In this document: positions 1,565-26,903 of the stretch, piece after piece | How the letters are laid out: the number at the start of each line of letters is the position of its first letter | Position numbering within the stretch: position 1 is the first letter of the stretch | Assembly: GCF_033153115.1 (NCBI RefSeq) | Contig: NW_026889762.1 | Span: 5,852,496-5,916,495 of the forward strand | Direction of reading: 5' to 3' | Source of the DNA: Saccostrea echinata | Taxonomy: Eukaryota | DNA length: 64,000 nucleotides | Notes under the pieces: model-generated | What the model saw: only the letters and a program-made list of their open reading frames with translations | Database searches by the model: none | What the model was told of the DNA's origin: nothing | Position numbers and translations under genes: made by a program

Positions 1565-1649
1565 GGGAGAGAGCCACCTCCACCACCTCGTGGTCTACCA
1601 CCTCGGACTGGGAGGGCTCTACCATCACCAACAGTTAGAGGACGCAGAG
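1565..1649 (+). CDS. Candidate internal exon (polyproline: GREPPPPPRGLPPRTGRALPSPTVRGRR). It lies in a duplicated copy of the 5' part of the VCA exon at 19144. Usage uncertain.
   Basis: Acceptor tttcag at 1559-1564 and donor GTGAGG at 1650. The upstream intron sequence (gatttttgctttcacataattatgaataaataaaatttaaatttcag) is paralogous to the sequence preceding exon 19144. Phase 0 start and phase 1 end, compatible with exon 4649. Confidence 0.4.
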
Positions 1650-1656
1650 GTGAGGA

Positions 1657-1800
1657 AGGAAAAGTCTTAAAATGACCAGTTCTCTTCACTTGAGCAGTTG
1701 TCTTAGAATGAGCAGTTCTCTTCACTTGAGCAGTTGTCTTAAAATGAGCAATCACCTGAGTAGTTGTCTTAAAATGAGCATTGGTCTTATCCTGAGCAGT
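1657..1800. repeat. Tandem repeat, about 36-bp unit, 4 copies (cttaaaatga(c/g)cagttctcttcacttgagcagttgt).
   Basis: Direct visual repeat immediately 3' of candidate exon 1565-1649. It creates an artefactual minus-strand ORF at 1561..1755. Confidence 0.8.
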
Positions 1801-3521
1801 AATCTAGGCTGAGAAAATCATGCTACATGCACTCAGGTGCCCATCAAGGCCCGTGAGTAGCTGCAGATCTGTAGCTCACTGGTCTGAAAAAAATTACAAT
1901 GGACGACCAGAGAGCTACAGTGCCATCCATTGAAAAAAGCGAGCTACAGATCTGCAGTTAGGCTCGTTCGCATTTTGTCAAAATTTCTTATTTCTTATAT
2001 CAAAAGTATGAAAGACAAGTGTTGTAAAACTATCAAGTCTTGTATACATATAAACATAGGAACTACTGGTGAATCTGTAGAAAACGTTCCACATTTAATG
2101 CTTTTTAATTTGTTTACAGAATATTGAAATAAAAAAGTTCCTGTTTATAAAATATTCTAATCTTTTGGTCTTAGGGGACGGTGGTGGAACTGTGGAATCC
2201 TTTGAAGCAGAACCGAAGGGATCATATGAAAGTTTGTAATAGTGACTTTTACCGTGGTATACTGTATGTGTACTTAAAAAAGCGGGCTTCATATTTTAGA
2301 GGCTTTGGCGCACACAACGATGCGCTAATTCATGAATACCGCTAAGAAATAATTTATAGATACAATACACGATACGGAGATGTGTAGCGCTAATTCATGA
2401 TTTTGCCAACAACTCCATACCCCTTGATTGCGCTAAATTTTAAATACGCCAATTTATATACACGTAAAGTATTACTTTTTAAGGTAAAAGAAATGTAAAA
2501 CTTTTTATAGCACTTGCATTGCACACAAATTCTTTACTAAAATCTTTTGAAAATATCTTTTTAAACAGGACTACCGTGTTTTGAGTTGTTGACAAAAGAA
2601 GGTACCGATATGTATTATTTTGCTTCGTCTATTACTGTACATGTAACTACCCTGTTTACCTTTAAGGAAGAATTCAAATAGAAGTACACTGACTCTCAAT
2701 TTTCTTGGTAATTTCTTAAAAGATTAGTAACAGATATAAATGTACAGTAAAAATCATTTGTAAGAAATCACATGTAAGAAATAACAGTTTTTAGGAAACT
2801 TTTACAAAGAGACTTTCCGTAATCACACCTTATTAATGTTATTGTAATTTGAAGTTTAATTGTAGAGTAGAACCAGTTTTATTACAACAGAAAATCGATA
2901 TAGTCTGTTTATTTAAAATACCATGGCAGAACGTGATTTCATACCTTTTGTTTAAGAAAAAGGTGGAGGGGGTTTTAGGTGAATTTCGCTATAGTGATAA
3001 TTTACAGTAAGGCATCTTGCCCGATACCGACATTTGCACCCTGTCCACCCCAGATCTTGGTTGGATTGTATTCTAATAACAAAAAATTCTACAATAACAA
3101 AATACTTCAATAACAAACCTTTACCTTATATGGCTATTGTTATTGCCTTAAATCTTTTTTAATTTATACATTTCCACTGTCATTGTGAAACGATGAAAAC
3201 TGAAACGTAACGTAACTTTTCTGTTTACCCTATCTCCACATTCAAGTCACTGCCTATCCACATTACAGTGAATAATTTACCTGATCCACTAACAGTCTCG
3301 CTGTAGTTTCACTTAATCTCTACAGAGCTACCTCGAACTCCTCGGGTATTTTGATACCATAAGATAAAAGGTTCCGAACACGTTTGTATGGGTGAAAATA
3401 GTCACACAAGTACGAGGCAGAATGCAAAGTCCCAATAACTTTTCTCTTAACTTTGTTTTGGTATGAAATCCTTATCATGTTGGTAAAATATAAATGAAGA
3501 TTGACTTAAATTCACCATGGT

Positions 3522-3820
3522 TGGTTTGTTTGTGTGTTGTATAACGTCCCTCTCGAGAATTTTTCATTCATATGGAGACGCCACCACTTGCTGGTGGAGA
3601 GCTGCAAATTTTGACCTATATTTGGCACTCAGGGACATTAAGCACAGAGGGATCTTTTTCGTGCCAGCACCTACTGCGACACAGGACCTCAGTTTATATG
3701 GTCTTATTGGAAGGACCGGTCTCCACGTCCCGCAGTGGTTTCGAACCCGCGACGTAAGGATCAACTCCTTACTCCGCGACTCTACAGTAGACGCTCTAAC
3801 CACTGCGCCACACGGGCGAC
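3522..3820 (-). mobile_element. tRNA-derived SINE (minus orientation) with an 11-bp target-site duplication ttcaccatggt.
   Basis: The reverse complement begins with a tRNA-like head (A box tggcgcagtggttagagcg, B box ggttcgaaacc). The conserved central block is ...gatccctc...tctccatatgaatgaaaaattctcgagagggacgtt, and the tail is (CAAA)n-like. Direct repeats ttcaccatggt at 3511-3521 and 3821-3831. ORFs 3517..3843 and 3564..3803 are artefacts of this element. Confidence 0.85.
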
Positions 3821-4648
3821 TTCACCATGGTAAAACTGTATGAAATACAAGAAAATACCTAGTACTGATAATTATGCTTCGTCACTTAGAAGTTCAAGAT
3901 AAAGAAAGGCTGTATATAATGATTCAGGGATGCAACAAAAAGTATTTAGCTGTCCCAAATTTTGTTCCCTATCCACAGATTTAAAATACGTATTAAGTAG
4001 AAGATTGCACATACATCTCAAAGTCATCACTTCGACGTACTTAAGGTTTTGTTCTTTTAAAATGAACAGTTAATCTGTAATCTTACTCAGACTTCATGAT
4101 AAAATTTTCAACTCTTACTACCTTTTTTACTAATTTTTTTTTTTTGAAATCATAAACAGTGTATTAAGTCTTATTTAACGTTTTTATCTTCCTCTGTAGA
4201 AGAAATCGACCAATATCAATTAAAATTGTCATATTATAGCATCGCTTTATATAGTTGATTCAGTTTGAACAAATGAAGAACCAGACCCTCTTTTGAAGCA
4301 GCAAGGGTCTTATTATATTAATTTGTTTTTTCTTTTGTTTTAAATTTAGACTGTGTAACAATGAGTGGAAAAGGAGGTGGTGGGGGAAATCTAGTCCTAG
4401 GCTCAGTTCTTTTTTTTTTTTTTTTTTTTTTTCATTTTAAGAAATGCACAATTTTATTGATCACAAATTTTCATTAAAAAAAGTTTTTATGGCATCAACA
4501 AGCATTTCATAAAAGAAAAATTTAAAAAGAACCTGCAGTACTCTTTTGTGTGGTAACTAAGGATAACTAGATCTCATAAGTTCGTTTATTAAAAAAAATT
4601 TCTCAGTTCGGAACAAATATACACATTATTCTGATTATTTTGATCTAG

Positions 4649-4702
4649 AATCTGAAGAAGAGGAAGAACTTGAAGACCAGTGGATGGGTCTTTTTGATGA
4701 CG
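4649..4702 (+). CDS. Exon encoding acidic-Trp motif (E)SEEEEELEDQWMGLFDD, probably from the same gene as the VCA exons.
   Basis: Acceptor ctag at 4645-4648 and donor GTGGGT at 4703. Phase 1 in and phase 1 out, which chains with 1565-1649 and with 4811-4845. Confidence 0.45.
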
Positions 4703-4810
4703 GTGGGTCAAGTACTTATCTATTGCATACTCTGGTCAGCTTTGAATTTTTATAATAATTATTATAATTGAATTTTAATTTACATGTAGTTAATTATTTT
4801 TCCCTTTCAG

Positions 4811-4845
4811 TTGAATTGCCAAAGGAAAAGGCACCACCTAGAGAA
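4811..4845 (+). CDS. Small exon VELPKEKAPPRE. The donor could alternatively be at 4849/4850.
   Basis: Polypyrimidine tract plus cag at 4808-4810 and perfect donor GTAAGT at 4846. In frame with exon 4649-4702. The phase relation to the next acidic exon (8392) is unresolved; the weaker donor at 4850 fixes it. Confidence 0.4.
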
Positions 4846-6316
4846 GTAAGTATTGGATTTTATTATGTTTTTTTATGAAACAAAATGTACTGTAAAAACA
4901 ATACATTTGCCTGTGTATTCTATTTAGTATCTTTGGTGGAATGCATCTGCCACTCAATCAACTACAATGCTCTATTTTGCATATATAATATTATACATGT
5001 ACATGCTCAAATCAGATACATTTTGCAGTAGTTATTTCACCCTTCGTTATATTTTTAAAGTTTCTTTTATCAGTTTATCAGTGTCTTATTTATTTCAGTC
5101 TTTAGTCCCGTAGGATTTATTATTTTGCCTGCTGCAGAAGATTCAAAGCCTTATATTTATCTGTCTCATTAAGATAATTTAACATATTCTCTGTCTGAAA
5201 GAGATTTTTTGGTTTTGTTGGTGACTGACATGTTATAAAATTCATCCTTTATTCTGGTTTAAGGTAGGCTGATTCTCAGTAATGTGTATTTACCCACGGT
5301 ATTTCTTCAAAGTTGATCATTAGAATTAGTCATATCATATAGAGAAAATTATCAAATCTCAAAATATATTTTCAGGAAACGTGAATAAAACCACCTGCTA
5401 TGCATTTTCTAATTGAAAATTGATCAACAAATATATTTTAAGATAAAAAAAACTATAGGTATCCAGGCATTTGGAGAAAATTGCATGTTTTTGTACTTAC
5501 ATGATTGGTATTTTAGTTCTTCTATTTACTTTAGTTATATATGATACAAAGTGTAAAAAAAACAAAAAAAAAAACTTTCGCTTTCATTGCAAGACATCAC
5601 AGATCACTTAATTTCATATCATGCCAAAAAACATTGGCATCTAAGGCTAGATTAAAGAAATTCGATTTCTCTAAATACGTATTTATTTTTGTAGTTTTAT
5701 GGGGTACAAATGTCAATTTTTTACAAGTTTGTTTCTAAGACTTCAAGGAACCTTGAATCATATTGAGATGCATGAAATGAAAATTGTTGCATGAAAAAAA
5801 TTCAATTTCAAGTTTCATTTTGAGACTTTTTAAATTAAATAACAATTTCAGGAGTTATCATTCCTGGCTGAGGGTAGGATATCCTTATATGCACATTTAA
5901 TCAACACATTTTTTTTATATTTGCCTGATAAATATATAATGGATAGCCCGTATTTTTTTGTTTTTTAAGTGCGTAATAAAACCATAATTCTGTTTTAAAT
6001 GATAGCATAGGAAATATCTTTTACATTTATTATATTTTATTATATAACATTTTAAAATAAAGTACTTGTTTGAATTCTTCTTCATATATTTTGAATTTCC
6101 TACTAAATTTTTTATCAACTTATATATTCTCCCATTAATACCACCATAAATGCACAGCGCTTAGCAAGACGCTTACTTAGTTTCTTGTCAATTTTCTAAG
6201 TTTGGCTTGTGGAGTCAGAGAGAGAAGCATCCCTTGTTCTATTTTGCATGTTCCACCATATTCCCATCCTTGTTAACATTTTTTTCGTCCGATACATCTC
6301 CTGTTTTTACGCTGAG

Positions 6317-6367
<51 letters not shown>

Positions 6368-6386
6368 CTCTCTCTCTCTCTCTCTG
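6317..6386. repeat. (CT)n microsatellite, about 33 units with one interruption.
   Basis: Direct reading. Confidence 0.95.
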
Positions 6387-7177
6387 AAAAACCCATGGAA
6401 TTATTGTCGTGAGATTTTATGACAGTGCGGGAAGATTAAAATTTAAGCATCTATTTTTCCTTTAAAAAAATTAACCTTGGTTAAAACTTTTGTATGAGAA
6501 AAGATGTCGTATTTATAGTTTTGTTACAAGAACTTCCTGATTGTTTTCTGACACTTGACCTCATTATATCAATTAATTAATGACTTTAACCAATAAGACC
6601 CACAAATTAATGAAGGACAATATTTCTGAATATTCTTATTAAAATTTTTTTGTCAGAGAGTATTTCGAGCTTCAGGGGGATAACCCCTTTAGAGTTACAA
6701 AAAAGAAACAAAAAAATTGGCAAATGTATAATTCAGTACACAAAAATGTGCATTTAAATCTGTAACAACTGTAAATGAAAATTTGAATCTGTAATTGTAA
6801 GGAGTATAACAATTGCAATATAACGTCCTTGACTCTTGTTCAAATCATAGACGATGGGGAAAGGGTGGGGCTACAATAAGGGAGCAAATTTTTATATAGG
6901 CACACATGTACTGTAAAAGCATTTACTTACGTGGGGACAAACTTTGGAGGTTGTTGAAAAAGTTCTAATTAAAATGGATTTAATTTAATAGTTGGTAGAT
7001 AAACATGATGCTGTACTTGAAATTTAAACATTTCATGGAGGACATGAATTTGTCCATCTCTTCATTCATTAAAAACTAATGATTTTACATTATGTAGGAC
7101 AAATCTATGAATCTTCTTTTCAAGATTAGCTTTTCAAAATAAGTCTTATTAATGTACAAACATCCTCAAATATTGTT

Positions 7178-7226
7178 GGCGTCTCCATATGAGTGAAAAA
7201 TTCTCGAGAGGGACGTTAAACAACAT
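7178..7226 (+). mobile_element. 5'-truncated fragment (about 50 bp of 3' tail) of the same tRNA-SINE family.
   Basis: ggcgtctccatatgagtgaaaaattctcgagagggacgttaaacaaca matches the conserved 3' block of the SINE copies at 3522, 20093, 22051 and 23445. Confidence 0.6.
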
Positions 7227-8391
7227 ACAATTGATCAATCAAATATTGTTCTTTCATTTTTTTTTTCAAACTACAAGCTCTTTGAAAAGGTTTGGGCCAC
7301 TTAATATGTAAAGAAATCAACGTTTAACATGGGAACATATAGGGAAAATCTTCTTAAACCTTCTAAACCATATGATTAGTCATATCGATATGCAAGTATC
7401 CACTTGTGGTGAAAATTCAAATTTGCAATCAAGTCCCCTGGGGAGACAGTTAGGCCACTATAGGGGATCAGTTTTACATTGCAGTATAGTGAGAAGAAAA
7501 CATTTCAAACTTTGCTCAACAAGAGCTAGTCTATTGGTTACGTAACTATATCTTTATACAATCGACCAGAGGTAAATTCAGCTCTGTTAAACATGGTCCC
7601 TGGGAACAGGGTAGGTTGGGACGACAATTTGGGATCAGTTTTACTTGGGAATATATAGAGAATTCAAACAATATTTTGATTGGACCTAATTGACACAGGC
7701 CAGCATTGTGGCCCTTGGTTATTTTTAAAATGGTTTGATACATATGATAGATATATGTTGTTGATTTTGGAATAATTTACACAAAAGCAATATTCATTGT
7801 AAGTTTTCAAGCTAAAAAATACCAATCCAATGCTTTTAATTTAAGATCAAAGAATCTAAGTTATATGACCTGCAACGTCAGCAGCTTGGAGAACTTACTG
7901 TGCTAAATGGAACTCGAAAGTCAAAGGTTAACAACGTAGTGTAAGTAGGAAATGAGAAGAATAAAGATATAGAGGGAATTATTAGGGATGATATAAATGT
8001 TAAGCCAAGGATTGTAACATTTATGATACATTCATTGCAATGAATACTCATGAAAACTCTATTTCCGATAGAAAAAGATTCGTGATTCTTGTGAGAGCTA
8101 GGGTTTGTTCTTACTACATGTACAACAAATGGTGGTGGTGGGAGGAGGCAGTTGGCCTTTCAATGAAAAATCTTAAACTGAGTATACAGTAAAGCAATAA
8201 TCATTTTACCAATCACTTCATGAAAATTGTGAAACATTTTGTGCAAACCATTAACTGAATATGCACTGTGCTTATGCAGTGTGCGTTTGGGGTAGTAGCA
8301 TGTTTAAAGCCACTGAAATGTAAAATTGAAAGTACCTCCAAGCAGGATATATTTACTTGAAATAAAAAGAAATTTTGATATTTTAGAGTAG

Positions 8392-8432
8392 GTTCCTTAT
8401 TTGATGAGGAGGAGCCTGAATTGGAAGATGAG
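8392..8432 (+). CDS. Exon encoding (G/S)SLFDEEEPELEDE, an acidic LFDEEE-type motif.
   Basis: Acceptor agtag at 8387-8391 and donor GTAATA at 8433. Ends in phase 0, compatible with exon 9686. Either a phase 1 carry-over from 4649-4702 or the alternative donor of 4811 gives an open acidic frame. Confidence 0.45.

Positions 8433-9105: not shown

Positions 9106-9108
<3 letters not shown>

Positions 9109-9136
<28 letters not shown>
9109..9136. repeat. (TC)14 microsatellite.
   Basis: Direct reading. Confidence 0.95.
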
Positions 9137-9139
<3 letters not shown>

Positions 9140-9685: not shown

Positions 9686-9781
9686 TACATGTCTTTCATG
9701 GCTGAGATAGAAAATGACCAACCTTCACTGAAGACTGAGGTACAGTCTATCCTTCAGCATTATAAAGAATCCGTTCTTAAA
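9686..9781 (+). CDS. Exon YMSFMAEIENDQPSLKTEVQSILQHYKESVLK. An internal alternative donor GTACAG lies at 9737.
   Basis: Strong acceptor (tttatttatttattttgcag at 9666-9685) and donor GTAAAT at 9782. Phase 0 in and out, open frame. Confidence 0.45.

Positions 9782-10260: not shown

Positions 10261-10265
<5 letters not shown>

Positions 10266-10348
<83 letters not shown>
10266..10348. repeat. (AT)n microsatellite, about 41 units.
   Basis: Direct reading. Confidence 0.95.
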
Positions 10349-10350
<2 letters not shown>

Positions 10351-12289: not shown

Positions 12290-13265
12290 TGTCATGTCCG
12301 TCTTCCGTCCTTCCGTCCTTCTGTCCTTCCATCTGTCCTTCCATCACACTTTGCTTTTAGCTCTGTTCAAATCTCAGTTTTAAAGAAACTGTCCAAGATA
12401 TTTTTATCAAACTTCATATGATGATAGATATTGATGAGAGCTATGCAACTGCATCAACATTTATTGACCTTGACCTTTCCTTTGACCTTGACATCACTTT
12501 TCTTAAATTAGTGTTTAGCTCAGTTTTTAAGATACCATTCAAGATAGTGTAATCAAACTTCATATGTTGATACATACTGATGTAAGCTATTCAACTGCTT
12601 CAACATTTTTTGACCTAGACCTTTCTTTTGACCTTGACCTCACTTTTCTTAAATTATTGTTTAGCTAAGTATTAATGAAACCATTCAAGATATTTTTAAC
12701 AAACTTCATATGCTGATACATACTGATGAGAGCTATTCAACTGCATCAATATTTTTTACCTTGACCTTTCCTTTGACCTTGACCTCACTTTTCGTAAATA
12801 AGTGTTTAGCTCACTTTGAAAGATAATATTCAAGATAGTGTTATCAAACTTAATATGCTGATACAAACTGATGAGAGCTATTCAACTGCATCAATATTTT
12901 TTGACCTTGACCTTTCCTTTGACATTGACCTCACTTTTCTTAAATTAGTGTTTAGCTCAGTTTTAAAGAAACCATTCATAATATTTTTATCAAACTTCAT
13001 ATGCTAATACATACTGATGTAACCTTTTCAACTGCATCAACATTTTTTGACCTTGACATTTCCTTGGACCTTAACTTCATTTATTTTTAATTAGTGTTTT
13101 GCTCAGTTTTAAATAAACCATTCAAAATATTTTTATCAAACTTAATATGCTGATATGTATTTATGAGAACTATTCAACTGCATCAAAAACGTTTGACCTT
13201 GAACTTTTCTGGGACCTTGACCTCATTTTACTTAAATTTGCATTTTGCTTAATTTTAAAGAAACC
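12290..13265. repeat. Satellite-like tandem array, about 148-bp unit, about 6.5 copies (tgaccttgacctttcctttgaccttgacctcacttttcttaaattagtgtttagctcag...caaacttcatatgctgatacatactgatgagagctattcaactgcatcaa).
   Basis: The motif ttcaactgcatcaa recurs every ~148 bp at about 12447, 12590, 12735, 12885, 13033 and 13177. Related single units lie at 20530-20760, 20996-21140 and 23740-23800. ORFs 12071..12421 and 12816..13007 lie inside it. Confidence 0.85.
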
Positions 13266-13489
13266 ATTTAAGATATATTTATGTAAGCTTATGCACTTAT
13301 ACATAATTTGGTGAAAATTTATCATCTATATCCAACTTTTTAGATTTCAATTTCAATTTTAAAGAAACTATTCAAGATATTCTCATCAAATTTCATACAA
13401 TAATACAGATTTTCATGTTGCATTACTAATATACCCTCGGCGGGGCATTCATGTCCTATGGACATATTTCTAGTTACTTCTATATAACA

Positions 13490-14147
13490 CTTGTAACTTT
13501 TTTAAATACAAAACGTCAAATTTGAGTACTATTTGGTTTAGAGTCATCAAACTTTGTCAGTTGATGTATCTTGGGTCCTCAGAGTAGGTCGACTGAAAAG
13601 TAGGTCACCGTGACCTACTTTTCAATTTATATTACTATTAAATATTTCGGGTCCTAAATGGCTTAGAATCATCAAACTTTGTCAGTTGATGCATCTTGGG
13701 TCTTTGGAGTAAGTCGACTGAAAAGTAGGTCACCGTGACCTACTTTTGAAAATTTATGGCTTTTATTAAATATTTCAGGTACTAATTGGCTTAGAATCAT
13801 CAAACTTTGTCAGTTGATGCATCTTGGGTCCTTGGAGTATGTCGACTTAAATGTAGGTCACTCTGACCTACTTTTGGAATTTTATGGCTATAGTTCAATA
13901 TTTTTCGGGTATTAATTTGCTTAAAGTCATCAATATTTGTTGGTTGATGCATCTTGGATGCTTGGAGTACGTCGACTGAAAGGTAGATCACTATGACCTG
14001 ATATAAATATTTTTTCAGGTACTAATTAGCTCAGAATTATCAAACTTTGTCAGTTGATGCATCTTGGGTCCTCAAAGTATGTCGACTTAAATGTAAGTCA
14101 CTCTGACCTACTTTTGAAATTTATGGCTTTATTAGCTCACCTGAGCT

Positions 14148-14439: not shown

Positions 14440-15460
14440 GGAATCATTGTGAGGTAGTGCAGATTCAAGTTTGTTCAAATCATGACCCCTGGGGGTAGGG
14501 TGGGGCCACAATGGGCGATCAAAATTTTACATAGGAATACATGGGAAAAAATCTTCTTCTCTAGAACAGCAAAGCCAAGATTGGTTATATCTATATGCAA
14601 GCATCCTCAGGTAGTGTAGATTCAAATTTGTTCAAATCATGACCCCCTGGGGTAGGGTGGGGCCACAATGGGCGATCAAAGTTTTACATAGCAACACATA
14701 GGAAAAATCTTTAAAAATCTTCTTCTCAAGAACAGCTAAGCCATGATTAGTCATATTTAAATGGAAGCATCCTCAGGTAGTGTAGATTCAAGTTTGTTCA
14801 AATCATGATCCCCGGGGGTAGGGTTGGGCCATAATGGACAATCAAAGTTTTATATACAGTAGGAATAAATAGGAATAAGTCTTTAAAAATCTTCTTCCCA
14901 AGAACAGCAAAGCCATGACGGGTCTTATCTATATCATGCAAGCATCCTCAGGTAGTGTAGATTCAAGTTTGTTCAAATCATGACCCCCGAAGGTATGGTG
15001 GGGCCACAGTGGGTGATCAAAGTTTTACATAGGAATACATAGGAAAAATCTTTAAAAATCTTCTTCTCAAGAACAGCAAAGCCATGATTAGTCATATTTA
15101 AATGGAAGCATCCTCAGGTAGTGTAGATTCAAGTTTGTTCAAATCATGATCCCCGGGGGTAGGGTGGGGCCATAATGGGCGATCAAAGTTTTATATACAG
15201 TAGGAATAAATAGGAATAAGTCTTTAAAAATCTTCTTCTCAAGAACAGCAAAGCCATGATTAGTCATATTTAAATAGAAGCAGCCTCAGGTAGTGTAGAT
15301 TCAAGTTTGTTCAAATCATGACCCCTGTGGGTAGGATGGCCCCACAATGGGGGATCAAAGTTTTACATAGGAATACATAGGAAAAATCAGCAACAGCCAT
15401 TTTGTGTCATATTAATTCAAAAGCATCCTCAGGAAGTGTAGATTCAAATAAGTTCAAATC
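14440..15460. repeat. Satellite-like tandem array, about 168-bp unit, 6 copies (ggtagtgtagattcaagtttgttcaaatcatgacccc..gggtagggtggggccacaatgggcgatcaaagttttacataggaatacatagg).
   Basis: Unit recurs at about 14447, 14617, 14777, 14950, 15118 and 15286. Related units at 11113-11450 and diverged units at 30130-30640. Confidence 0.85.
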
Positions 15461-15925
15461 ATCACTCACCCACCCGCCAACCACTTTTATAGTTAAACTT
15501 TTCAAGACTGAACTGATTTCTGCTTTTTCCTAGCCAAAGTGCCCAGGTGAGCGATGTGGCCCCTGGGCGTCTTGTTGCTTGACGCCACGTGCGTCAGGCA
15601 GTATAAGGATTAATTTTTCCAAGATCCGAAACTAAGCGATCATTCTTAATGAACTAGATTTTCTGGAAGCTGATTTACACTGGATTTTGTTACCTGCCTT
15701 TAAACAAATACAGTTTGCAGAAGAAAGAATCATATTACTGATGCAAAATAATAATCTGTTTAATTCCTTCAGTTTTTTTTTTTTCGCATGCACATATTTA
15801 TCATTTGCGATTCTTTGCACGGGCATGTCCGTGTAACATGTTTTCTGCGTTTCTAAACTTCTGGATTAGTTGATTTGCCTTCTACGAAAGGGGTGACACA
15901 ATCTTTTCGCGCCAAATGTCACGTA
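15133..15925. repeat. Copy 2 of the approximately 0.8-kb near-identical segmental duplication.
   Basis: See 11113-11905. ORF 15632..15826 is the duplicate of ORF 11603..11803. Confidence 0.85.
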
Positions 15926-17451
15926 AATTATCTTCGCGCCTTTTTCTTGGATTGTTCTATTGAATGGGTGTGATAACTTCTATGGAAATAAATAACTTTT
16001 ATTCTTTTAACCTGATTCTTAAGCTTCAGATTTTTTATTAACAGTAAATTTTATCTCATTTTTAAAAGAACACATTGTATATGGGCAGGCAACACGAAAG
16101 CAATTTGCTGATTATTCTTACTATTTATCCCATAAGTGAACTACTCCAATCATAAACAAACTCCCTCGACCTAGTAAATGGGACATCCCTTCTTGATTCA
16201 GTCTGTTTTCCACCTTTTCTTTCAATATTACATTCATTAATAATGTACATTACAAGGTTGGGTTTTTTAAAAAGCTTAGAAAGTACAGCCAGTAGCATAT
16301 TATTTCATGCTTTATGATGAACAAGGATAGTGAGTGACAAGAGTGTTGGTCAGTACCCATAGAGGAATGGGCTTAACTCCCATAAGGTTCTAAGCAAAGA
16401 ATCGGCAAAATGAAGAAGACATCATGATCTCTACTAGTTTTCATTTCATATAAAAGCACGTTATTATAATTATGAGAAAGGTCCTGAAATCGATTGAAAA
16501 GAAAAAAACTAGACAATTTTAAAACTGTACATAAAGATGTATTTTAAACTCATTTATAATAGATGTATATGGTAAGGCCATCAGCGCGTGAGTTTCGTCC
16601 GGTTGGAGGGGGGGGGGGGTATTAGTATCTTGTTTTGCTCTAGCTATAATGTGTACAGTCCATTTACTTTGAATTCTAGAGCAGCATTGAAGCATTTTTG
16701 TCTCAAACACTTCAAACCAAGGCAGTTAAAACTGTTCATAATTTACTTCGTCGTCGAGAACGACGGAAAACAGACCAGTCTATAAAAAGAGGCCGTCGCA
16801 TCAATCTATCACTGACCAGAGAGTGTGCATGAAGAAGCGCGCCCTCTAGTAAGAGAGTAAATGTAATATGAAATTCTTTAAAACGAATCATCTAACTATT
16901 TTTCCCAAAATTATAATCTACTCTAGATAGCGCACTTAGAGTTTCATCCCAACGTAACTTGTCAGCCCGTGGGCTAACTAATACATGATTAAATAGTGGC
17001 ATGTCTTAGATATTCGTTAATCTGTAGTATTTGGTTATGAGATTTTCAAGAGAAAGTCAATTGTACATCTTGTGTAATGAAGTATCGCAAATATATCGCT
17101 CCTTGCTGACGGACCTCTAGCACCTCTCTTGCTTATACGTTCCATAGATATTGATTGATTAGTCAGGCAAGCTTTTTGAAAAGCTATTACTTGTATAAAT
17201 ATTTCAGGTACTATTTGGCTTAGAATGATCAAACGAAGTTAGTTGATGCAACTTGGGTCCTCAGAGAATGACAAGTGATAAGTAGGTCACCATGACCTAC
17301 TCACAGATACTAATTGGCTTAGAATCATCTTGGGTTCTCAGAGTGTTTTATCTAAAATGTAGATTGAGGACCCATGATGACCTACCTTTGGAATTTCAAG
17401 GCTTTATCTAAATGTACAGGATCAAATTTTTACAAAGGAATATGTGGAAAT

Positions 17452-18133
17452 TTTTTTTATGCCCCCGGATCGAAAGATCCCGGGGGTATATTGTTTTTGT
17501 CCTGTCTGTCTGTTTGTCTGTTTATCTGTTTGTCTGTTTGTCCGTTTTCTGTTTGTCTGTCTGTCTGTTGTCAACTTTAACCTTGCCCATAACTTTTGTT
17601 TGGTTGGAGCTATGACTTTTATATTTCACATGTGTATTCCTTGTGACAAGACCTATTTTGGGTACCATCATATTTGACCTTTTGACCTTGACCTTGGAGT
17701 TTGACCCACTTTTGCAAAATTTTATGAGACTTTAACCTTGGCCATAACTTCTGAACAGTTGGTGCTTGGGGTTTCAAACTTCACATGTGTATTCTTTGTG
17801 ACAAGGCCCTCCTTTGGATACCAACAACTTTGACCTTTTGACGTTGACCTTGGAGTTTGACCTACTTTTGAAAAACTTTAACCTTGGCCATAACTTTTGA
17901 ACAGTTGGTGCTTGGGGTTTCAAACTTCAGAAGTGTATTCCTTGTGACAAGACCTTCCTCTGGATAGATACCACTTTGACCCTTTGACCTTGACCTAGGA
18001 GTTTGACCTACTCTTGAAAAACTTTAACCTTGGCCATAACTTTTGAATGGTTGGAGCTAGGGCTTTCATACTTCACATATGTAATCCTTGCGACAAGACC
18101 TTCCTTTGGATACCAACCACCACTTTGACCTTT

Positions 18134-18164
<31 letters not shown>

Positions 18165-18510
18165 GAAAAACTTTAACCTTGGCCATAACTTTTGAATTGT
18201 TGGTGCTAGGGCTTTCATACTTCACATATGTAATCCTTGTGACAAGATCTTCCTTTGGATACCAACCACTTTGACCTTGACCTTGACGTTTGACTTTTAT
18301 TTAAAAAACTTTAACCTTCGCCATAACTTCTGAACAGTTGTATCTAGGTCTTTCAAATTTCACAGGTGTATTCCTCGAGACAAGACCTTTCTTTGGGTAT
18401 CAACATTTTTTATCTTTTGGCCTGGATTTTGACTTGCATTTGAAGAAACAATAACCTTCGCCATAAGCTGCCATACGGGGGCATCAGTGTTTCACAAACA
18501 CAACTTGTTA
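17452..18510 (+). mobile_element. Composite non-autonomous element, copy 1 of 3. The head is ttttatgcccccggatcgaaagat followed by a (gtct)n microsatellite. The body is an internal ~150-bp tandem array (tttgaccttttgaccttgaccttggagtttgacctacttttgaaaaactttaaccttggccataacttttgaa..). The tail is ccataagctgccatacgggggcatcagtgtttcacaaacaca. Resembles the pearl-type elements of bivalves.
   Basis: The same head, array and tail architecture recurs at 36953-38108 and 43480-44628. Artefactual ORFs 17374..17677 lie in the (gtct)n region. Confidence 0.7.
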
Positions 18511-19143: not shown

Positions 19144-19443
19144 GAAAAAACACCACCACCACCACCACCCACTAAGAATATAATACCTCGGTTTCCACCA
19201 TCTGTAAGTGTATCTAGTATACCGCCTCAATCTCTGAGATCTCCACCACCACAATCAATGATAAGAAGAGGCAGAGGGAGAGACAGAGGAGGTGGGGGAG
19301 GGGGAGGAGACCGACAGACTCTATTACAGTCCATAACTAGAGGACAAACTCTAAAGAAAATTCCACCTCGGCCTGAAAAGCCCTCTGTAGAAGATCACCG
19401 GGATATTGTGTTTCAAGCCCTTGAACATAGAGCCAGTATTTCA
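19144..19443 (+). CDS. Exon encoding polyproline, WH2 and C (connector) motifs of a WASP-family VCA module: EKTPPPPPPTKNIIPRFPP..SPPPQSMIRRGRGRDRGGGGGGGDRQTLLQSITRGQTLKKIPPRPEKPSVEDHRDIVFQALEHRASIS.
   Basis: Acceptor tttcag at 19138-19143 and donor GTAATA at 19444. 300 nt, phase 0 in and out. LLQSITRGQTLKKI fits the WH2 consensus LLxxIxxGxxLKK(V/I). IVFQALEHRASIS fits the C-helix pattern (compare WASP LVGALMHVMQKRSRAI and WAVE VATILSRRIAVEYS). Confidence 0.75.
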
Positions 19444-20092: not shown

Positions 20093-20376
20093 GTTGCCTG
20101 CATGGAGCAGTTGTTAGAGCTTCTGCTCTAGAGTCGCGGAGTAAAGGGCTGATCCTTATGTCACGGTTTCGAACGAGAGACCGGTCCTTTGGTTGAGACC
20201 GTATAAACCGAGGTCCCGAGTCGCAGTAGGTGCTGGCACGCAAAAGATCCCTCACTGCTCAATGGCCCTGAACGCCAAATATAGGTATACATTTGCAGCC
20301 CCCAATGGCAAGTGGGGGCGTCTCAAAATGAGTAAAGAATTCTCTCGAGAGAGACGTTAAACAATAAACAAACAAA
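20093..20376 (+). mobile_element. tRNA-derived SINE (+), with target-site duplication catactataatt.
   Basis: The head is gcatggagcagttgttagagc...ggtttcgaacgag. Conserved central and 3' blocks, (CAAA)n tail. Direct repeats at 20081-20092 and 20377-20388. Confidence 0.85.
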
Positions 20377-20755
20377 CATACTATAATTATAATTGTATTA
20401 ATGAAGAGAAATGTTTAAAATGCCAAATGCGTGAGGATCAAAGTGAAATTCAAACACATTGCCCTTATATTTAATTTTTTATTGAAAAGCTGACATCAGC
20501 TTTTTCAATTTAAATTTACATTTGTATATACCACGCCTTGAAATTGGCCAGGGCATATAGTGTTAGTGTTTGTGCATCTTTCTTATATCTGTCTGTCCAT
20601 CTATCACACTTTGTGTTTAGCTCAGTTACAAATAAACTATTCAAAGTATTTTATCAAACTTCATATGCTGATACATATTGATGGGAGCTATTCAACTTCA
20701 TCAACAATTTTTTACCTTGATTGTCTTTTGTTCTTGACCTCACTTTTCTTAAATT

Positions 20756-20995
20756 GAGTAGACCACGTGGCGCAGTGGTTAGAGAGTCTGCTCTAGAGTC
20801 GCAGAGTAAGGAGTTGATCCTTACGTCGCGGATTCGAATCCACTGCGGGACGTGGAGACCGGTCCTTCGGATGAGGCTATGTAAACAGAGGTCCCGTGTC
20901 ACAGTTGGTGTTGGCACAATAAAGATCCCTCACTGCTCATTGGTTCTGAGTATATAGACGTTAAACAACAAACAAACAAACAAAACAAACACTAT
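20756..20995 (+). mobile_element. tRNA-derived SINE (+), inserted into a unit of the 148-bp satellite, with target-site duplication cttaaatt.
   Basis: tRNA-like head gtggcgcagtggttagagag..gattcgaatcc. (CAAA)n tail. Satellite sequence cacttttcttaaatt on one side and cttaaattagtgttcagc on the other. ORFs 20654..20917 and 20721..20957 are artefacts. Confidence 0.85.
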
Positions 20996-22050
20996 TCTTA
21001 AATTAGTGTTCAGCCCAGTTTCGAAGAAAGTTTCAACATATTTCTTTCAAACTTTATAAGCTGATACTTATTAATAAGAATTATACACCACTATATTTTT
21101 TTTTTACCTTAAAATTTCTTTTGACCTTCGCCTCACTTTTCTCAAATTAATTAAGGGTTTTTTCATTTTCCCTGAAAATTTTCAAGACATTTTTAGATCA
21201 CCTCAAGGAAGTTGGTGGAGCTTATGTGATACCCTTGGCGTCGGTGTCGGCGTCTCAGGTTAAATTTTTGGTGCAGTTTTCTTATCTAGTACTTCTATGC
21301 CCTGCATTGATCAGGGTTGCATGGAAAATATTTCTTGTGTGTTTCATTGTACCAGTCAAGGTTTCAGATGCTGCAACTAAGGAATGACCAGGTTAATGTT
21401 TTCAGAGCAGGTTAAAGTTTTTGGAGCACGATAAAGTTTTCCAATAAACTATAAGACCTATGTTGACCAAACTTTCATGGATGATACATCTACGGATTCA
21501 CATTACTAGGCTTGCTTCGGATGCTGGATCTAACTTACATTTTCCAGATGAGTGACCAGGTTAAAGTTTTTGAAGCAGGTTCATTTCTAAGGTAACTATA
21601 AGCCTTATGTTGACCAAACTTGCATGGGTGGTACATCTAAGTATGCACACTACTGGACTTGCTTCGGATGCTGGATAAGACCTACATTTTCCAGATGAGG
21701 GACCATGTTAATGTTTTTGGAGCAGGTTCATTCTTAAGTAAGAATTTGCTGTACCTTGACCAAACTTGCATGGATGATATATGTAAGGATGGACACTACC
21801 AGGCTTGCTTCGGATGCTGGATTTGAATTACATTTTCGAATGAGTGACCAGGTTTAAGCTTTTGGCGCAGGTCCATTACCAAGAAACTATAAGGCCTATC
21901 TGAAGCAAACTTGCCCTGATGATGCGTCAAGGGATGAACACTCTTAAACTTGCTTCAGATGCTTGATTTGAATTACATTTTCTGGAAGAGTGATTAGTTT
22001 TTGGATAAGTTAAGTCCCAATGCATAAATGTTGCATCTTGGGATGTACAC

Positions 22051-22311
22051 GTGTTTTGTTTGTTTGTTTGTTGTTTAATGTCCCTCTCGAGAATTTTTCA
22101 CTCATATGAAGACGCCACCACTTGCCGGTGGAGAGCTACAAATTTTGACCTATACTCGGACTTATGGCTATTGAGCAGTGAGGGATCTTTTTCGTGCCGG
22201 CACCTACTGTGACATGGGACCCAGAGTCGGATTCGAACCCGCGACGTAAGGATCAACTCCTTACTCCGCGACTCTAGAGCAGAGCTCTTACCACTGCGCC
22301 ACGCAGGCGAC
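22051..22311 (-). mobile_element. tRNA-derived SINE (-), with target-site duplication gatgtacac.
   Basis: Reverse-complement head gtcgcctgcgtggcgcagtggtaagagc..ggttcgaatcc. (TTTG)n at the left end. Direct repeats at 22042-22050 and 22312-22320. Confidence 0.85.
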
Positions 22312-23158
22312 GATGTACACTTGTCTACTAGATTATTAGTTTAGTGTGAAACTTTGCATTAAAGACAACATTCGTTGAGGTGAGCTCTGTAATCTCTGAT
22401 TACCTATGTTTATGAAAGCTTATGCACTGATTTATAATTTGGGATGAATTTATCAACTCTGTCCATTTTTTTTTACCTTGACATTCCCAATGACCTTTGA
22501 CTTTATTATCTATTTTGTATAATAAAACCCTGTGTTAGAGGAATTATTAAAGATATTTTCATCCAATCTAATACACTTTTACAATCTTTCATGTTGCATA
22601 ATTAATGAACCCAGATTTTTGAATTCATGTCTTTTGACCATTGTTCTAGCTGAAATGTTTTCTTCACAGAAAAATTACTTGGCAAGTGTCAATAATATTT
22701 CCTTGTCCATTTCAACTGATATAGGACGTTAGGACAAACTTAATATTAATTCCTGCATGTTTAATAAATGCCTTAGAAAAAAGGACAACTCTTTTCCAGT
22801 CATATTTCTAAAAAACAAAACAAAACAAAAAAAAAGAGCAAAATATATATTATATGGGTAGTATGGATTAATTTTTTTTCAACTCAAGGACCTTAGGGAT
22901 AGGGCAAGGCCACAATACTCAATAGGTTATCAAGAATCTTTGTACTTGATGTGATAGATACATTTATTAAAATCAAAGCATATGTGATAGGGAAAACCTG
23001 ATATTGTAATAAGTTATTATGGTTTTTTTTTTTTTTTTTGGCTAGGAACTTGGTTGTAATACGAGTACAGTACGTTATAAGGGAATGTGTAAATAAGGTA
23101 GATTAATCATGAAATAGTAGTGGTCAAAACATATATTACCCTCTTGTTTATTTTACAG

Positions 23159-23266
23159 GAGGAGGAAGAAGGAGATTGGGATTACTCTAAAGAGGAAGCG
23201 CTTGAAGAGGAAGGGAAAAAGAAAGCATTTTATTCTGCAGTGTATGGTTCAAAAGAAAGTGAGAAG
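23159..23266 (+). CDS. Exon encoding the acidic (A) motif of the VCA module: EEEEGDWDYSKEEALEEEGKKKAFYSAVYGSKESEK.
   Basis: Acceptor ttttacag at 23151-23158 and donor GTACTT at 23267. Phase 0 in and out. The acidic run with a single Trp (EEEEGDWDY) directly follows the C helix of exon 19144-19443. If unspliced, the frame stops 10 codons later. Confidence 0.7.
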
Positions 23267-23444
23267 GTACTTTCTACAGTATGTCTCTAGAGTATACCGT
23301 ATAAAGTAATGTTTGGGATTAAGTACATGTAATCCAACTTTTTTGTCTAATCAGCTGCAGGAAACTCATTGTTGAGTGTCTACGAAGTCCCATTTCATAA
23401 AAAATACTTACTACTGTGTCATACTTTCAAATGGTACATTTTTG

Positions 23445-23725
23445 TTTGTTGTTTACCGTCCCTCTCGAGAATTTTTAATCATATGGAGACGCCACCACTT
23501 GCCGGTGGAGGGCTGCGAATTTATACTCGGCACTCGGGACCATTGAGAAGTGTGGGATCTTTTTCGAGACAACATCTACTGCGGCATGGGACCTCGGTTT
23601 ATACGGTCTTATCCGAAGGACCGGTCTCCACTCCCACAGTGGGATTTGAACCCGCGAAGTAAGGATCAGGTACTTAATCTGCGATTCTTGAGCAGACGCT
23701 CTAACCACTGCGCCACGCGGGCAAC
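23445..23725 (-). mobile_element. tRNA-derived SINE (-), with target-site duplication ggtacatttttgt.
   Basis: Reverse-complement head cgttgcccgcgtggcgcagtggttagagcg. Direct repeats at 23432-23444 and 23726-23738. ORFs 23369..23662, 23475..23732 and 23550..23750 are artefacts. Confidence 0.85.
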
Positions 23726-24539
23726 GGTACATTTTTGTAACTCAACATAAGGCCAGGACATATAGTATTTATCATTTCCATTTTCCGTCCTCCCGTCTGA
23801 TAACTTCATAGTTGCACTGTTCTGATTTAGGAAATCCAGACAGAATAATCAGAGAGCTACAGATTTAAACATTGTTAAAACCTTTGATTTATGGAGACAC
23901 TGTCACAAACTGTGTATACTATATTCTTGCATTATCTGTGTTCCCCAGTTCAAAACATGGTATACTTAAATTAACAACTATTTTGTGCCTAATATTGTTT
24001 CTAAATTGATCTTTCAAGGGTTCTTTTCAAGATAACAATTTATTTAGATTTCATCGTCATATTCAACTTTAGCATAAGTTTCTAATTCCACATCCTTGTT
24101 TGTGTTTAGCTCAGTGTAGAAATAAGATATTTTTAATATTTTTAACATTTTGGTGGGAATTTTTCTGTTCTTTACTATTTACATGTGCATCTTCAAAAAA
24201 AACCTGTTTAAAATATTTATTTCAAATTTAACACACAAAACACATCAAATTGAAGTACTTTTCAACTGTGTCATAGTTTTCATGTCTTGGTTTTAGATAT
24301 ACATTTTACTTCTCTAATAAAAAATTGCTTTTATCACAGTGTAGAAAAAAACAGTTGATAATATATTCATCAAACTCATAACACTTATACAAATTGGTGA
24401 GTGTAATTAAATTCTTTCATAATTTTCTTACATTTTTCTTTTCTATGATTATGACCTAGAGTCATTTAATCGTGCCATAAATTCTAGTTTTTACATTAAA
24501 TATGGACTTCATTTTAATTATTAAAACTTAATGATATGA

Positions 24540-24854
24540 TTAATTGATTGTAAGTTGTCTTACGTCCCATTCAAGAATTTATCACTCATATAGAGACGTC
24601 ACCATATACCGGTGAAAGACTTCAAATTTAGACCTCTACTTGGCACTCATGACCATTGAGCAGTGAGGGAACTTGATCGTGCCAATGCCTGCCGTGACAC
24701 TTCAGAGTGCCGAGCGCATGGCGAAGGAACAGTAACTTCCTATTTTTTTATCGACTTTTGTTATCAACTTAGGTAAGTCGTGATCGAGATTCGAACTCAC
24801 GATCTTCCGATCACAGAGCGAGCGTTCTACCGACTGAACTACCGTGACGGTGAT
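24540..24854 (-). mobile_element. tRNA-derived SINE of a second family (-), with target-site duplication ttaatgatatga.
   Basis: Reverse-complement head caccgtcacggtagttcagtcggtagaacgctcgctctgtgatcggaagatcgtgagttcgaatctcgatcacgac (A and B boxes). The T arm cannot fold as a cloverleaf, so it is not a tRNA gene. The 3' block is shared with the other SINEs. Direct repeats at 24528-24539 and 24855-24866. Confidence 0.8.
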
Positions 24855-25280
24855 TTAATGATATGAATACACAGTTGGGAACGACATGGACATTATAGAA
24901 TGATTATTATTATAACAAAAATATACAAAAGACACACCGTTGTGAAAGGCAAAGATAAGCGTTGGCAAATAAGCTGAAAGGTAGCATAATCTTGTTGTAA
25001 GATTGCTGATTTGATATGGAACATATTTTTTTTTACCTCCACATCAATAAAAATAAAAAAGGACAGAATTTAGTTTATCCGGAATAGCAAACGTATCAAA
25101 AACCATATCAAGAAACATATATATACCAATATAAATTAAGCCAGAATAATGCCATTATGATAATTTAGATAAAAAATTAAATTTATGACAAAAAATATAT
25201 TTCTGAAAACTAGTTAAAGGGTTAACATTTCTGTTATGTTTTAAAAATTATTAGCCAACAAAGGTTTTTTTTTTTTGTAG

Positions 25281-26208
25281 AGTGTGATGAAAAAACGACA
25301 TAGGAAAGATCAAAGTACTCCTGCACCACCACCACCACCACCACCACCACTGATAACTAACGAAGACACACTTTTTGGAGCCCAATCACAACCACAGAGT
25401 GGGACAGGCTTTGGGTCATTTCCACCAGCATTTGGGACCCTATCTTCACAATCAGCACCATCAGCCAGCAGTCCGTTTGGAAGTGTGCAAGGTTTTGGCC
25501 CTCCTCCTGCCTTCGGGGCACCCGCTTTATCTAGTGTAAACATTGCATATCAATTCTCATCAGTTTCCGAAAAAAGTGAAACTTCTGGGTTTAGTTTTGG
25601 ACAAACGTTTGGGGCACCTACACAACAAATGTCTACTAACAATGTGTTTGGAGGTCCAGTCACTAAACTCCAAGTGCCCCAACAACAAATGTTTGGAGTA
25701 ACCTCAGGTTTTGGAGGTGGACCACCACCAATTTCTCAAATGTTCCAGCAAACTATGAGAGCAGGTGCTGTTGGAGGACTTCAACCACCTTTATCAAAGA
25801 AAACACATGGATCTGTTGTTCCTGAACCACCTCCTTCATCACGTACTCCGATATTGCGGCCTTCAAAATTTAGAGCAGGTCTGCCTCCAACACCACCCCC
25901 TCCACTCCCTATGGCAGCAGCACCTGGAGGGACTCCAACACCACCCCTTCCACCTCCTACCCAGATGTTCATTGCAGCATCACCTGGAAGGGCTCCACAT
26001 CCTCCTCTTCGACCTTGGCATATAATTGGAGCACCTCCCAAACCTCTTTCAATTGTTCACAATTTAAATATGTTCTCAGAAAAGGAAAGCAGACGTCAAC
26101 CTTCTCAATCTCTTGAAAAAGCAGCGATTTTAACTCAGCATTCACCTCCAGCTCCAACAACAAGAACACTTGAATCTTCCGATAATGCCAAGCAGGTGTC
26201 ATGGAGAA
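25281..26208 (+). CDS. Large exon (928 nt) encoding a Pro-rich, FG-repeat, low-complexity region: SVMKKRHRKDQSTPAPPPPPPPPLITNEDTLFGAQ...FGSFPPAFG...LPPTPPPPLPMAAAPGGTPTPPLPPPTQMF...QVSWR.
   Basis: ORF 25284..26219 with no stops over 309 codons. Preceded by a strong acceptor (15 pyrimidines plus gtag at 25277-25280) and ends at a perfect donor GTAAGT (26209). Phase 0 in, matching exon 23159-23266. Phase 1 out, matching exon 26584. Confidence 0.65.
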
Positions 26209-26583
26209 GTAAGTTTTAAAACAATTTATATTCTTTCACTTTATATCGATCAGGCACCAGTGTAACATACTCAATTTTGAAAGAAAACTCCTATCAAAAA
26301 TTGAAATTTTAAATTTTTCTGAATTTTATGATACCATGTCCAATTATTCATTTATAATGAGTTAAATATCTATTCTAGAAATATTCAAACTAGTCAAACA
26401 CGTGTAATATGTCTAAGTTTTTGTTGTTAGATTCTTTGAGCTATTGAAATTCTTGCTTATTTTTCTATTTTTTTTTTTAAATTAAAAGCTCTTTGAAGTC
26501 CTTACATTCTTTGTTAACAAGAAAATAAAACCATTTATCAAATATACTTTATTTTAATTATTATAATTTCAACATTCTAATAG

Positions 26584-26903
26584 CTATGGGGAGGAAATTG
26601 AACCAAGAGAGAGAAAGCAAACAACAGGAAATGGAAGATAAAATATTGCTAGATTCTCCGCAAGAAAATTTGCGTCAGAGTTTTTTAAAACGATCTCCTG
26701 AGAGAAAACAACAAGAAATGGGAGAGGAAAAATTAGAGAAAACCATGAAAAAAATAAAAACAAAATCCTTGAATCGTAAACAAAAAAAGCTGACAAAAGA
26801 GGATATTTCTCCAGCAAAGGAAGCTGAGCCACTACTGATAGAATCTCCACAAGAAATACAACGTCTGAGTTTTATAGAAAGGTCTCCCGAGAGAAAGGAA
26901 ACG
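26584..26903 (+). CDS. Exon encoding a charged region with two copies of a ~30-aa internal repeat: LLDSPQENLRQSFLKRSPERKQQE and LLIESPQEIQRLSFIERSPERKET.
   Basis: Acceptor ctaatag at 26577-26583 and donor GTGAGA at 26904. ORF 26586..26927. Phase 1 in and phase 0 out. Confidence 0.6.

Follow-up and report, generated by a model that had tools for sequence, protein, structure and literature searches.

The 64,000-nucleotide (nt) stretch of Saccostrea echinata DNA analyzed here, referred to throughout as the window, carries a gene that was initially annotated as encoding a WH2-C-A (VCA) module of the type with which WASP-family proteins activate the Arp2/3 complex. A query assembled from the claimed exons was 100% identical to the RefSeq model XP_061177490.1 (labeled P0001), which identified the window as S. 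echinata; the model is a 530-amino acid (aa) "uncharacterized protein LOC133186285". Besides P0001, the same query matched just two models, both from S. cucullata: P0002, isoform X2 of LOC134282206, and P0003, a model on a short contig named "formin-F-like". The window was compared with two loci of S. cucullata, L001 on contig JAVVLV010011933.1 and L002 on contig JAVVLV010015316.1. L002, with 85% DNA identity to L001 over 2.5 kb, represents a paralog or else a highly divergent haplotype. On balance, the comparisons favor the interpretation that the WH2-like sequence is part of a rapidly evolving, disordered region forming the N-terminal two thirds of a single Saccostrea-only gene, the product of which would end with an Hsp70 substrate-binding domain (SBD) and a domain resembling the MINT domain of PARP4. 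The gene most likely has at least 17 coding exons, beginning at or before window position 4649 and ending at 40838, with a product of about 1000 aa. The exons and the motif are listed below (a slash marks the exon boundary; dN/dS is the ratio of nonsynonymous to synonymous divergence between the two species).

4649-4711 (+), acidic N-terminal exon encoding (E)SEEEEELEDQWMGLFDDGGS; AG/GT boundaries; orthologous to L001 1178-1237 with the donor conserved; in-frame ATG at 4684.
4811-4845 (+), small exon encoding IELPKEKAPPRE; AG/GTAAGT boundaries, kept in S. cucullata.
7846-7940 (+), exon encoding IKESKLYDLQRQQLGELTVLNGTRKSKVNNV; present in P0001; dN/dS 0.27.
8387-8432 (+), exon encoding VGSLFDEEEPELEDE, the "LF-acidic" motif; not conserved in S. 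cucullata.
9686-9739 (+), exon encoding YMSFMAEIENDQPSLKTE; part of the rebuilt chain.
19144-19443 (+), WH2/C cassette exon of 300 nt, phase 0/0; acceptor cag/G, donor TCA/gtaata.
19321-19362 (+), WH2-like motif LLQSITRGQTLKKI within the cassette exon, followed by a linker and the C-like segment DIVFQALEHRASIS.
23159-23266 (+), acidic, A-like exon EEEEGDWDYSKEEALEEEG... with a single Trp; acceptor acag/G, donor AAG/gtactt.
25281-26208 (+), Pro/FG-rich low-complexity exon of 309 codons plus 1 nt, with 11 FG dipeptides and 19% Pro; dN/dS 0.61.
26584-26903 (+), charged exon entered in phase 1 and ending in phase 0 at the conserved donor g/gtgaga; dN/dS 0.16.
33018-33137, 33985-34089, 34365-34482 and 35027-35121 (+), downstream exons with AG/GT boundaries and compatible phases.
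36343-36397 and 38532-38638 (+), two linker exons with AG/GT boundaries, phase-compatible and conserved in L001.
39134-39233 and 40498-40838 (+), last two exons, stop codon included, with AG/GT boundaries and compatible phases.

The upstream part of the chain was rebuilt with the S. cucullata protein and locus L001 as guide. Across the nine exons of the disordered part (1.97 kb in total) every boundary is AG/GT and the frame stays open, and the upstream splice sites are shared with S. cucullata. The two exons at the center of the initial annotation, 19144-19443 and 23159-23266, were confirmed with boundaries, open frames and translations exact. The first encodes, in order, a polyPro tract, an RGG/Gly run, the WH2-like motif, a linker and the C-like segment; the second translates as EEEEGDWDYSKEEALEEEGKKKAFYSAVYGSKESEK (EEEEGDWDY...SEK). 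The annotation also had the frame running on into the Pro/FG-rich exon and then into the charged exon, which holds two LLxxSPQE...SF..RSPERK repeats. These joins, from the acidic exon to the FG exon and from there to the charged exon, are contained in P0001, which is 100% identical to the reconstruction in this part. P0001 skips the 300-nt WH2/C exon, splicing ...SLKTE directly to EEEEGDWDY. In S. cucullata the exon is included in all four annotated isoforms of LOC134282206 (X1-X4), and in each the WH2-C-A segment is internal, so that the unusual placement of the module in mid-protein, with hundreds of coding residues past the Trp, was upheld. The acidic Trp is followed by 452 residues in the reconstruction ending at 26927 and by about 790 in the long gene model. 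Retention of the intron after the acidic exon would lead to a stop codon 28 residues past the Trp, located at 23288-23290 rather than at about 23298 as annotated.

P0002 was compared exhaustively by phmmer with 1.84 billion representative proteins; the search returned only three Saccostrea proteins and detected no homolog of the disordered part outside Saccostrea. By this search the gene is restricted to the genus. The disordered part is 51% identical between the two species with dN/dS 0.57 at dS 0.52, values according to which it is evolving fast. The AlphaFold (AF2) model of the disordered protein of S. cucullata (657 aa) showed disorder throughout, with short helices only and a mean pLDDT of 40.9; one helix, at residues 49-68 in the model of P0002, falls in the counterpart of exon 7846-7940.

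Within this region the WH2-like motif stands out. The sequence RQTLLQSITRGQTLKKI fits at every position that is key to a WH2. Translated in six frames, the window contains the pattern LL..I..G..L[KR]K[VIT] a single time, and L001 contains it once, at the orthologous position, compared to 0 to 0.01 occurrences in shuffled windows. Of 24,736 Pfam families, none but WH2 matched the disordered part, and the two species share the site of the match. With the WH2 pattern of Kollmar 2012 as reference, the motif matched save at three positions, all of them conservative changes. A human VCA profile was prepared from five sequences (WASP, N-WASP and WAVE1-3) and validated by recovery of real PDB chains at E values of 1e-33 to 1e-10; hhalign against this profile aligned the WH2 part alone, with P=2.5e-5 and a probability of 75%. 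The WH2 core is the most conserved 25-aa window of the 650-aa disordered region, with 21 of 25 residues identical versus the 51% average. The exon as a whole matched the S. cucullata protein with 64% identity (tblastn, E=4e-20), and its DNA identity was 77% versus 47-58% for the flanking introns, every gap being a multiple of 3. Judged by these comparisons, the WH2-like motif is real and conserved.

Several results weigh against a strong reading of the motif. The score for Pfam WH2 (PF02205) was 14.2-19.4 bits (E 0.036 to 0.0008), below the gathering score of 23.1. The dN/dS of the WH2/C exon was 0.68, and selection constraint was confined to the WH2 core rather than exon-wide. A search of PDB sequences with the 88-aa module recovered no WASP-family chain, the nearest match being a Spire WH2 at E=1.8. 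One alternative is a chance or convergent motif, in which LLQSIT.GQ.LKKIPPRPEKP would bind a partner other than actin, for example an SH3 domain via PPRPEK. In line with it are the scores under the Pfam cutoff in every test, the dN/dS of 0.57 for the disordered region as a whole and the lack of a homolog outside the genus that would show long-term retention. It is nevertheless rather doubtful in view of a motif that has all key WH2 positions preceded by Arg and is unique in the window, the exclusive Pfam match and hhalign P value given above, and the Pro tracts that flank the motif as in known WH2 proteins.

The segments following the WH2-like motif are less well preserved. As described in Kollmar 2012, the C motif combines three large hydrophobic residues at a spacing of three with an R/K doublet and ends in a hydrophobic residue. 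Of the three spaced residues, the C-like segments of S. echinata and S. cucullata (DIVFQALEHRASIS and DLLSFSVLQSRACIQ) each retain two, along with a lone Arg in place of the doublet and a terminal Ile, and they differ by an indel. The acidic runs with Trp read EEEEGDWDY in S. echinata and EEDEESWSD in S. cucullata. A hidden Markov model (HMM) of the human VCA aligned from WH2 through A in S. cucullata with 12-13 bits (HMMER) and with WH2 only, at 6 bits, in S. echinata. A profile of C and A only, derived from human WASP and WAVE and evaluated against composition-preserving shuffles, gave p of about 0.04 for S. echinata and no signal for S. cucullata after bias correction. The acidic exon was 44% identical between the species at the amino acid level with dN/dS 0.93. 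Of the "textbook VCA" initially annotated, the unique and conserved WH2-like motif therefore stood; the C and A parts, which profiles do not consistently distinguish from shuffled sequence, did not. A fair description, based on these alignments, is a WH2-like motif plus a degenerate C/A-like tail with the order and spacing right.

Compared to the nucleation-promoting factors of the WASP family (NPFs; WASP, N-WASP, WAVE/SCAR, WASH, WHAMM/JMY, WHIMP, WAWH and WAML), the oyster sequence likewise has a Pro tract followed by one WH2-like motif; a linker of some 14 residues then leads to an amphipathic segment in which an Arg is conserved, and the acidic run behind it contains a single Trp, with spacing closest to that of WAVE. 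Unlike these factors, the oyster Trp is internal, the C motif is degenerate, sequence homology is undetectable beyond WH2, and the protein lacks WH1, WHD, WAHD1, GBD and IMD domains and is known from one oyster genus only. The Trp is the third residue from the end in mammalian members of the family (PMC7112243). On three of four sequence criteria for the WASP family (C motif, near-C-terminal acidic Trp and N-terminal domain) the oyster protein departs from the family, and by this comparison the gene product is not a WASP-family member.

A true class I NPF, the internal WH2, C and A of which bind actin and Arp2/3 and trigger branch nucleation, is nonetheless an alternative that would be compatible with the long gene model. 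The WAVE-like order and spacing (LKKI, 14 residues, the amphipathic segment with the conserved Arg, then the acidic Trp run), the span of the HMM match in S. cucullata and the presence of the module in both species are in its favor. So is the precedent for acidic Trp motifs outside the C-terminus: an N-terminal acidic motif mediates the binding of cortactin to Arp2/3 (PMC10613254), and the Trp of acidic motifs fits pockets of ArpC1 and Arp3 (PMC7274804). The N-terminal acidic region of cortactin is a working acidic motif at a position other than the C-terminus; its sequence is unrelated to that of the oyster protein. Internal or non-C-terminal acidic-Trp or WH2 motifs also function inside disordered regions of WIP/verprolin, Abp1, Listeria ActA and baculovirus P78/83. 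The internal module of the oyster protein may work in a VCA-like manner, because the internal acidic-Trp motifs of cortactin bind Arp2/3. Arp2/3 activation is to be regarded as possible; that the protein is a class I NPF is considered unlikely, in view of the incomplete C segment with its single Arg and interspecies indel, the poor C/A profile signal with hhalign ending after WH2, the lack of WASP-family chains in the PDB search and the poorly conserved acidic exon. Moreover, CA-type segments can also inhibit Arp2/3, as described for Coro7 (PMC12592476).

Acidic-Trp and LF-acidic motifs upstream of the WH2/C exon had also been annotated, as a possible second CA-like or LFa-like module. The motifs are present at 4649-4711 and 8387-8432; their interpretation as a second module was rejected since they are not conserved in S. 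cucullata. EDQWMGLFDD of the first exon corresponds to EDLCFEFFGDE without Trp, and GSLFDEEEPELEDE of the second to RDPSFSKKAAMDDE. The further assumption that a family-defining N-terminal domain lies outside the window found no support in the S. cucullata protein, which starts at the ortholog of 4649, is predicted to be disordered and has the weak WH2 as its only Pfam match. Pfam searches of P0004 and of the S. echinata reconstruction detected no N-terminal domain of the WH1, WHD/SHD, WAHD1, GBD or IMD type.

The S. cucullata protein begins MAGGVKESEEE, and its start-codon exon maps to about position 2600 of the window. Two features upstream of the acidic N-terminal exon are related to the 5' end.

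1565-1649 (+), truncated copy of the first Pro-rich/RGG exon (S. cucullata "unit 1"); the flank and start match L001 7109-7209 and 12003-12063.
2585-2625 (+), remnant of the S. cucullata start-codon exon (ATG GCA GGA GGA GTT AAG G/gtatgt), identified by alignment.

In S. echinata the first coding exon has lost its ancestral ATG as well as its donor, a point against the favored interpretation; an in-frame ATG that is a possible start remains at 4684. An ATG exon with a phase-1 donor was sought at 1650-4648, where nothing convincing was found. Exon 1565-1649, with which the gene began in the initial annotation, proved to be the truncated copy listed above and lies upstream of the window region 2500-2735 that matches L001 190-462, the start-codon exon region. 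Unit 1 is located in S. cucullata between the YGSLMAEL exon and the WH2 exon; it is absent from the syntenic intron in S. echinata, and the displaced copy is broken at about 1660 by a 36-bp tandem repeat (1664-1750). The copy is phase-compatible with 4649 and could be part of the gene if the 5' half were duplicated upstream of the window. P0001 starts at an ATG at 7593, and the annotated N-terminus MVPGNR is probably not the ancestral one because its start exon (7593-7610, plus strand) had no blastn match in L001.

These features bear on the alternative that the S. echinata copy is decaying from the 5' end and that the WH2/C exon is a relic no longer expressed. Such decay would account for the lost ATG and donor, for the absence of unit 1 from its intron and the displacement of its truncated copy, and for the WH2/C exon donor, which is GTAATA compared to GTAAGT in S. 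cucullata, together with the skipping of that exon in the RefSeq model. It is considered quite unlikely, since the nine exons have remained open with AG/GT boundaries despite a dS of about 0.5, the indels of the WH2/C exon are in frame, and the ATG at 4684 is usable.

The initial annotation ended the gene at 26903. This position is a splice donor and not the gene end, and P0001 reaches its terminal stop (26925-26927) by reading through it. The eight downstream exons occur in S. cucullata with identical lengths and splice sites and 87% protein identity, with dN/dS 0.16 at dS 0.445; by these measures they are clearly expressed coding sequence. The first of them, 33018-33137, is the next conserved block on the same strand. 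Its strong phase-0 acceptor directly follows a stop codon, and the exon itself lacks an ATG; the SBD exons therefore need an upstream partner. In S. cucullata only 213 nt separate the donor of the charged exon from the SBD exon. The phase-0 donor of the charged exon and the frame leading to it are kept in three loci: the window, L002 and, after removal of one A, L001. The early stop of isoforms X1-X4 results from this extra A in an A9 run of L001 (about 17395-17410), which reads A8 in L002; its removal restores the frame to the donor. An assembly error or a genuine frameshift allele would explain the A9 run. The Gnomon model P0003 joins the charged exon (...SREPMAM) to the first SBD exon at the conserved donor. 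From the 213-nt spacing, the L002 frame with the P0003 join, and the explanation of the A9 run, it is likely that a single unit encoding about 1000 aa made up the ancestral gene and probably also makes up the present one.

Three observations count against the favored interpretation. P0003, the sole model with a join between the disordered part and the SBD, is itself chimeric, comprising a SNAP-25-like SNARE exon (L002 413-529, within a 2.5-kb insertion in L002) followed by the FG exon, the charged exon and the first SBD exon. In both species the RefSeq models stop short of the SBD exons: P0001 ends at 26927, and the frameshift stop terminates X1-X4. Finally, P0001 skips the WH2/C exon and starts at the non-conserved ATG. 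The locus could instead hold two genes, a disordered orphan ending at 26927 and an independent downstream gene encoding the SBD and MINT-like domains. This arrangement would agree with the ends of the P0001 and X1-X4 models and would dispense with a window intron of 6.1 kb full of insertions. It is judged somewhat unlikely, since it leaves an SBD exon that begins at an acceptor without a start codon, with no compatible first exon visible on inspection in the 213 nt available in S. cucullata, and since the donor and frame are conserved in three loci with the early stop of L001 attributable to a single A in a homopolymer.

Exons 33018-35121 encode an Hsp70 interdomain linker, a beta-sandwich SBD and the start of the lid. 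The first 145 residues matched Pfam HSP70 (PF00012) with 116.4 bits (cutoff 20.6, E=1.5e-33) over profile positions 382-522 of 599, and SBD chains of Hsp70 in the PDB matched the first downstream residues at E of about 1e-33. No motif of the Hsp70 nucleotide-binding domain (NBD) and no significant tblastn match to it was found on either strand of the 64-kb window, with a human HSPA8 sequence as the query; a single match on the opposite strand had E=4.4. The oyster protein shares with canonical Hsp70 of the HSPA8/HSPA1A type the linker LLLLDV, the beta-sandwich SBD and the first lid helix. It differs from canonical Hsp70 by the missing NBD, a lid that stops at profile position 522 of 599, the lack of an EEVD tail, and the fusion of the SBD to unrelated N- and C-terminal regions.

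Exons 39134-40838 encode a helical C-terminal domain of about 150 residues that is 89% identical between the species. The last 150 or so residues had no Pfam match. With phmmer against the PDB, the S. echinata domain matched residues 1581-1716 of human PARP4 at E=0.0012, an alignment that reaches the C-terminus of both proteins. Smith-Waterman scores against PARP4 were 114 for S. echinata and 95 for S. cucullata, compared to 30 +/- 5 for 2000 shuffles (z=16.8 and 13.0), and a reciprocal tblastn of the PARP4 segment had its best window match at 40728-40835 in the last exon (E=4.6e-4). The MINT domain anchors PARP4 inside the vault on major vault protein (MVP) repeats 3-5, and joint mutation of S1614 and K1618 abolishes MVP binding (PMC12280208). 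Both residues are conserved in the oyster domain (NSLGKKVG versus QSLGVKG). Counting against the assignment, the same top PDB match had E=0.24 with the S. cucullata domain and E=0.44 with a two-sequence profile, a remote similarity; the contact residues Q1682 and R1689 are replaced by K and M; and AF2 of the last exon alone gave a low-confidence helical model with which Foldseek found nothing in the PDB. The domain was also considered as a HEPN domain, an identity ruled out by the absence of an Rx4-6H motif. Taken together, the alignments indicate that the C-terminal domain is likely homologous to PARP4 MINT. As in PARP4, long disordered stretches precede this domain in the oyster protein, which aligns over nearly the whole MINT to the C-terminus; unlike PARP4, it has no BRCT, PARP catalytic, VIT or vWA domains, the identity is about 25%, and the two contact residues differ.

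The domain order of the proposed protein would thus begin with an acidic N-terminus and a short helix, continue with polyPro, RGG, WH2-like, C-like and acidic Trp segments, and proceed through the Pro/FG-rich region and charged repeats to an ATPase-less Hsp70 SBD and the PARP4-MINT-like domain. In a working model, the MINT-like domain would dock the protein on MVP and the SBD would serve as a peptide clamp. The disordered arm would carry short linear motifs, of which the WH2 could bind an actin monomer, the Pro tracts could bind profilin or SH3 domains and the acidic Trp might contact Arp2/3. Inclusion or skipping of the 300-nt phase-0 exon would toggle the WH2/C part. The steps from motif to actin and Arp2/3 binding, and from MINT-like domain to vault localization, are ones that we infer. 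In its most far-reaching form the model describes a new vault-resident protein in which three unrelated pieces, MINT docking, the ATPase-less Hsp70 clamp and a long disordered FG arm with a working, splice-toggled WH2-C-A, link vaults to actin and Arp2/3, a proposal that is speculative and on present comparisons improbable.

Should the WH2-C-A prove to work, the gene would offer an animal case of an internal Arp2/3-type module, housed in a disordered protein of restricted lineage and switchable through one cassette exon, which would bear on the origin and spread of short-motif modules. The combination of an ATPase-less Hsp70 SBD with a PARP4-like vault-docking domain would make the protein a candidate new vault component, which perhaps matters more than the WH2. 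Vaults still lack an established function and natural cargo, and a second natural protein with a MINT-like domain would make cargo recruitment directly testable. If the vault-resident proposal is true, the MINT domain would be a transferable natural vault-targeting signal.

Repeated sequences are prominent at the locus. In S. cucullata, unit 1 (DLMMFSAKALPPRKA...GEDLLMMEVSPQRGSLQR) is a degenerate second copy of the WH2/C exon located directly before the good copy, an arrangement that points to tandem exon duplication. The 9.4-kb intron preceding the WH2/C exon of the window is filled by large tandem arrays, and arrays with periods of 128-166 and 295-341 bp were found at 12373-13282, 13526-14109, 14547-15388, 17729-18423 and 21408-21993. 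The 128-bp array also occurs 3' of the gene in S. cucullata (L001 18405-20250), and because of this different placement the two loci are taken to be rearranged relative to each other. The introns of the window gene also contain, in either orientation, an interspersed repeat of roughly 300 bp (3517-3843, 20093-20376, 20757-20920, 22059-22311 and 23369-23732), which is present in S. cucullata as well (L001 about 15059-15711). The apparent 85% "conservation" of the intron after the acidic exon is due to this repeat.

Two further features lie near the ends of the window. Just 5' of the displaced Pro-rich exon copy, positions 1-900 (plus strand) contain a DDE transposase fragment with an open reading frame (ORF) at 488-889 that matched Pfam DDE_3 below threshold (E=3.5e-4) and is mariner/Tc1-like by eye (HQDNAPAHRA...). 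The first residues of a 462-aa ORF at 60596-61984 (plus strand) resemble the end of a protein kinase domain (DPRRRIKMEEILRHQWL). This ORF has a weak match to a SIK3-type UBA domain, below threshold (E=0.007), and probably represents the final exon of a gene for an AMPK-related kinase.

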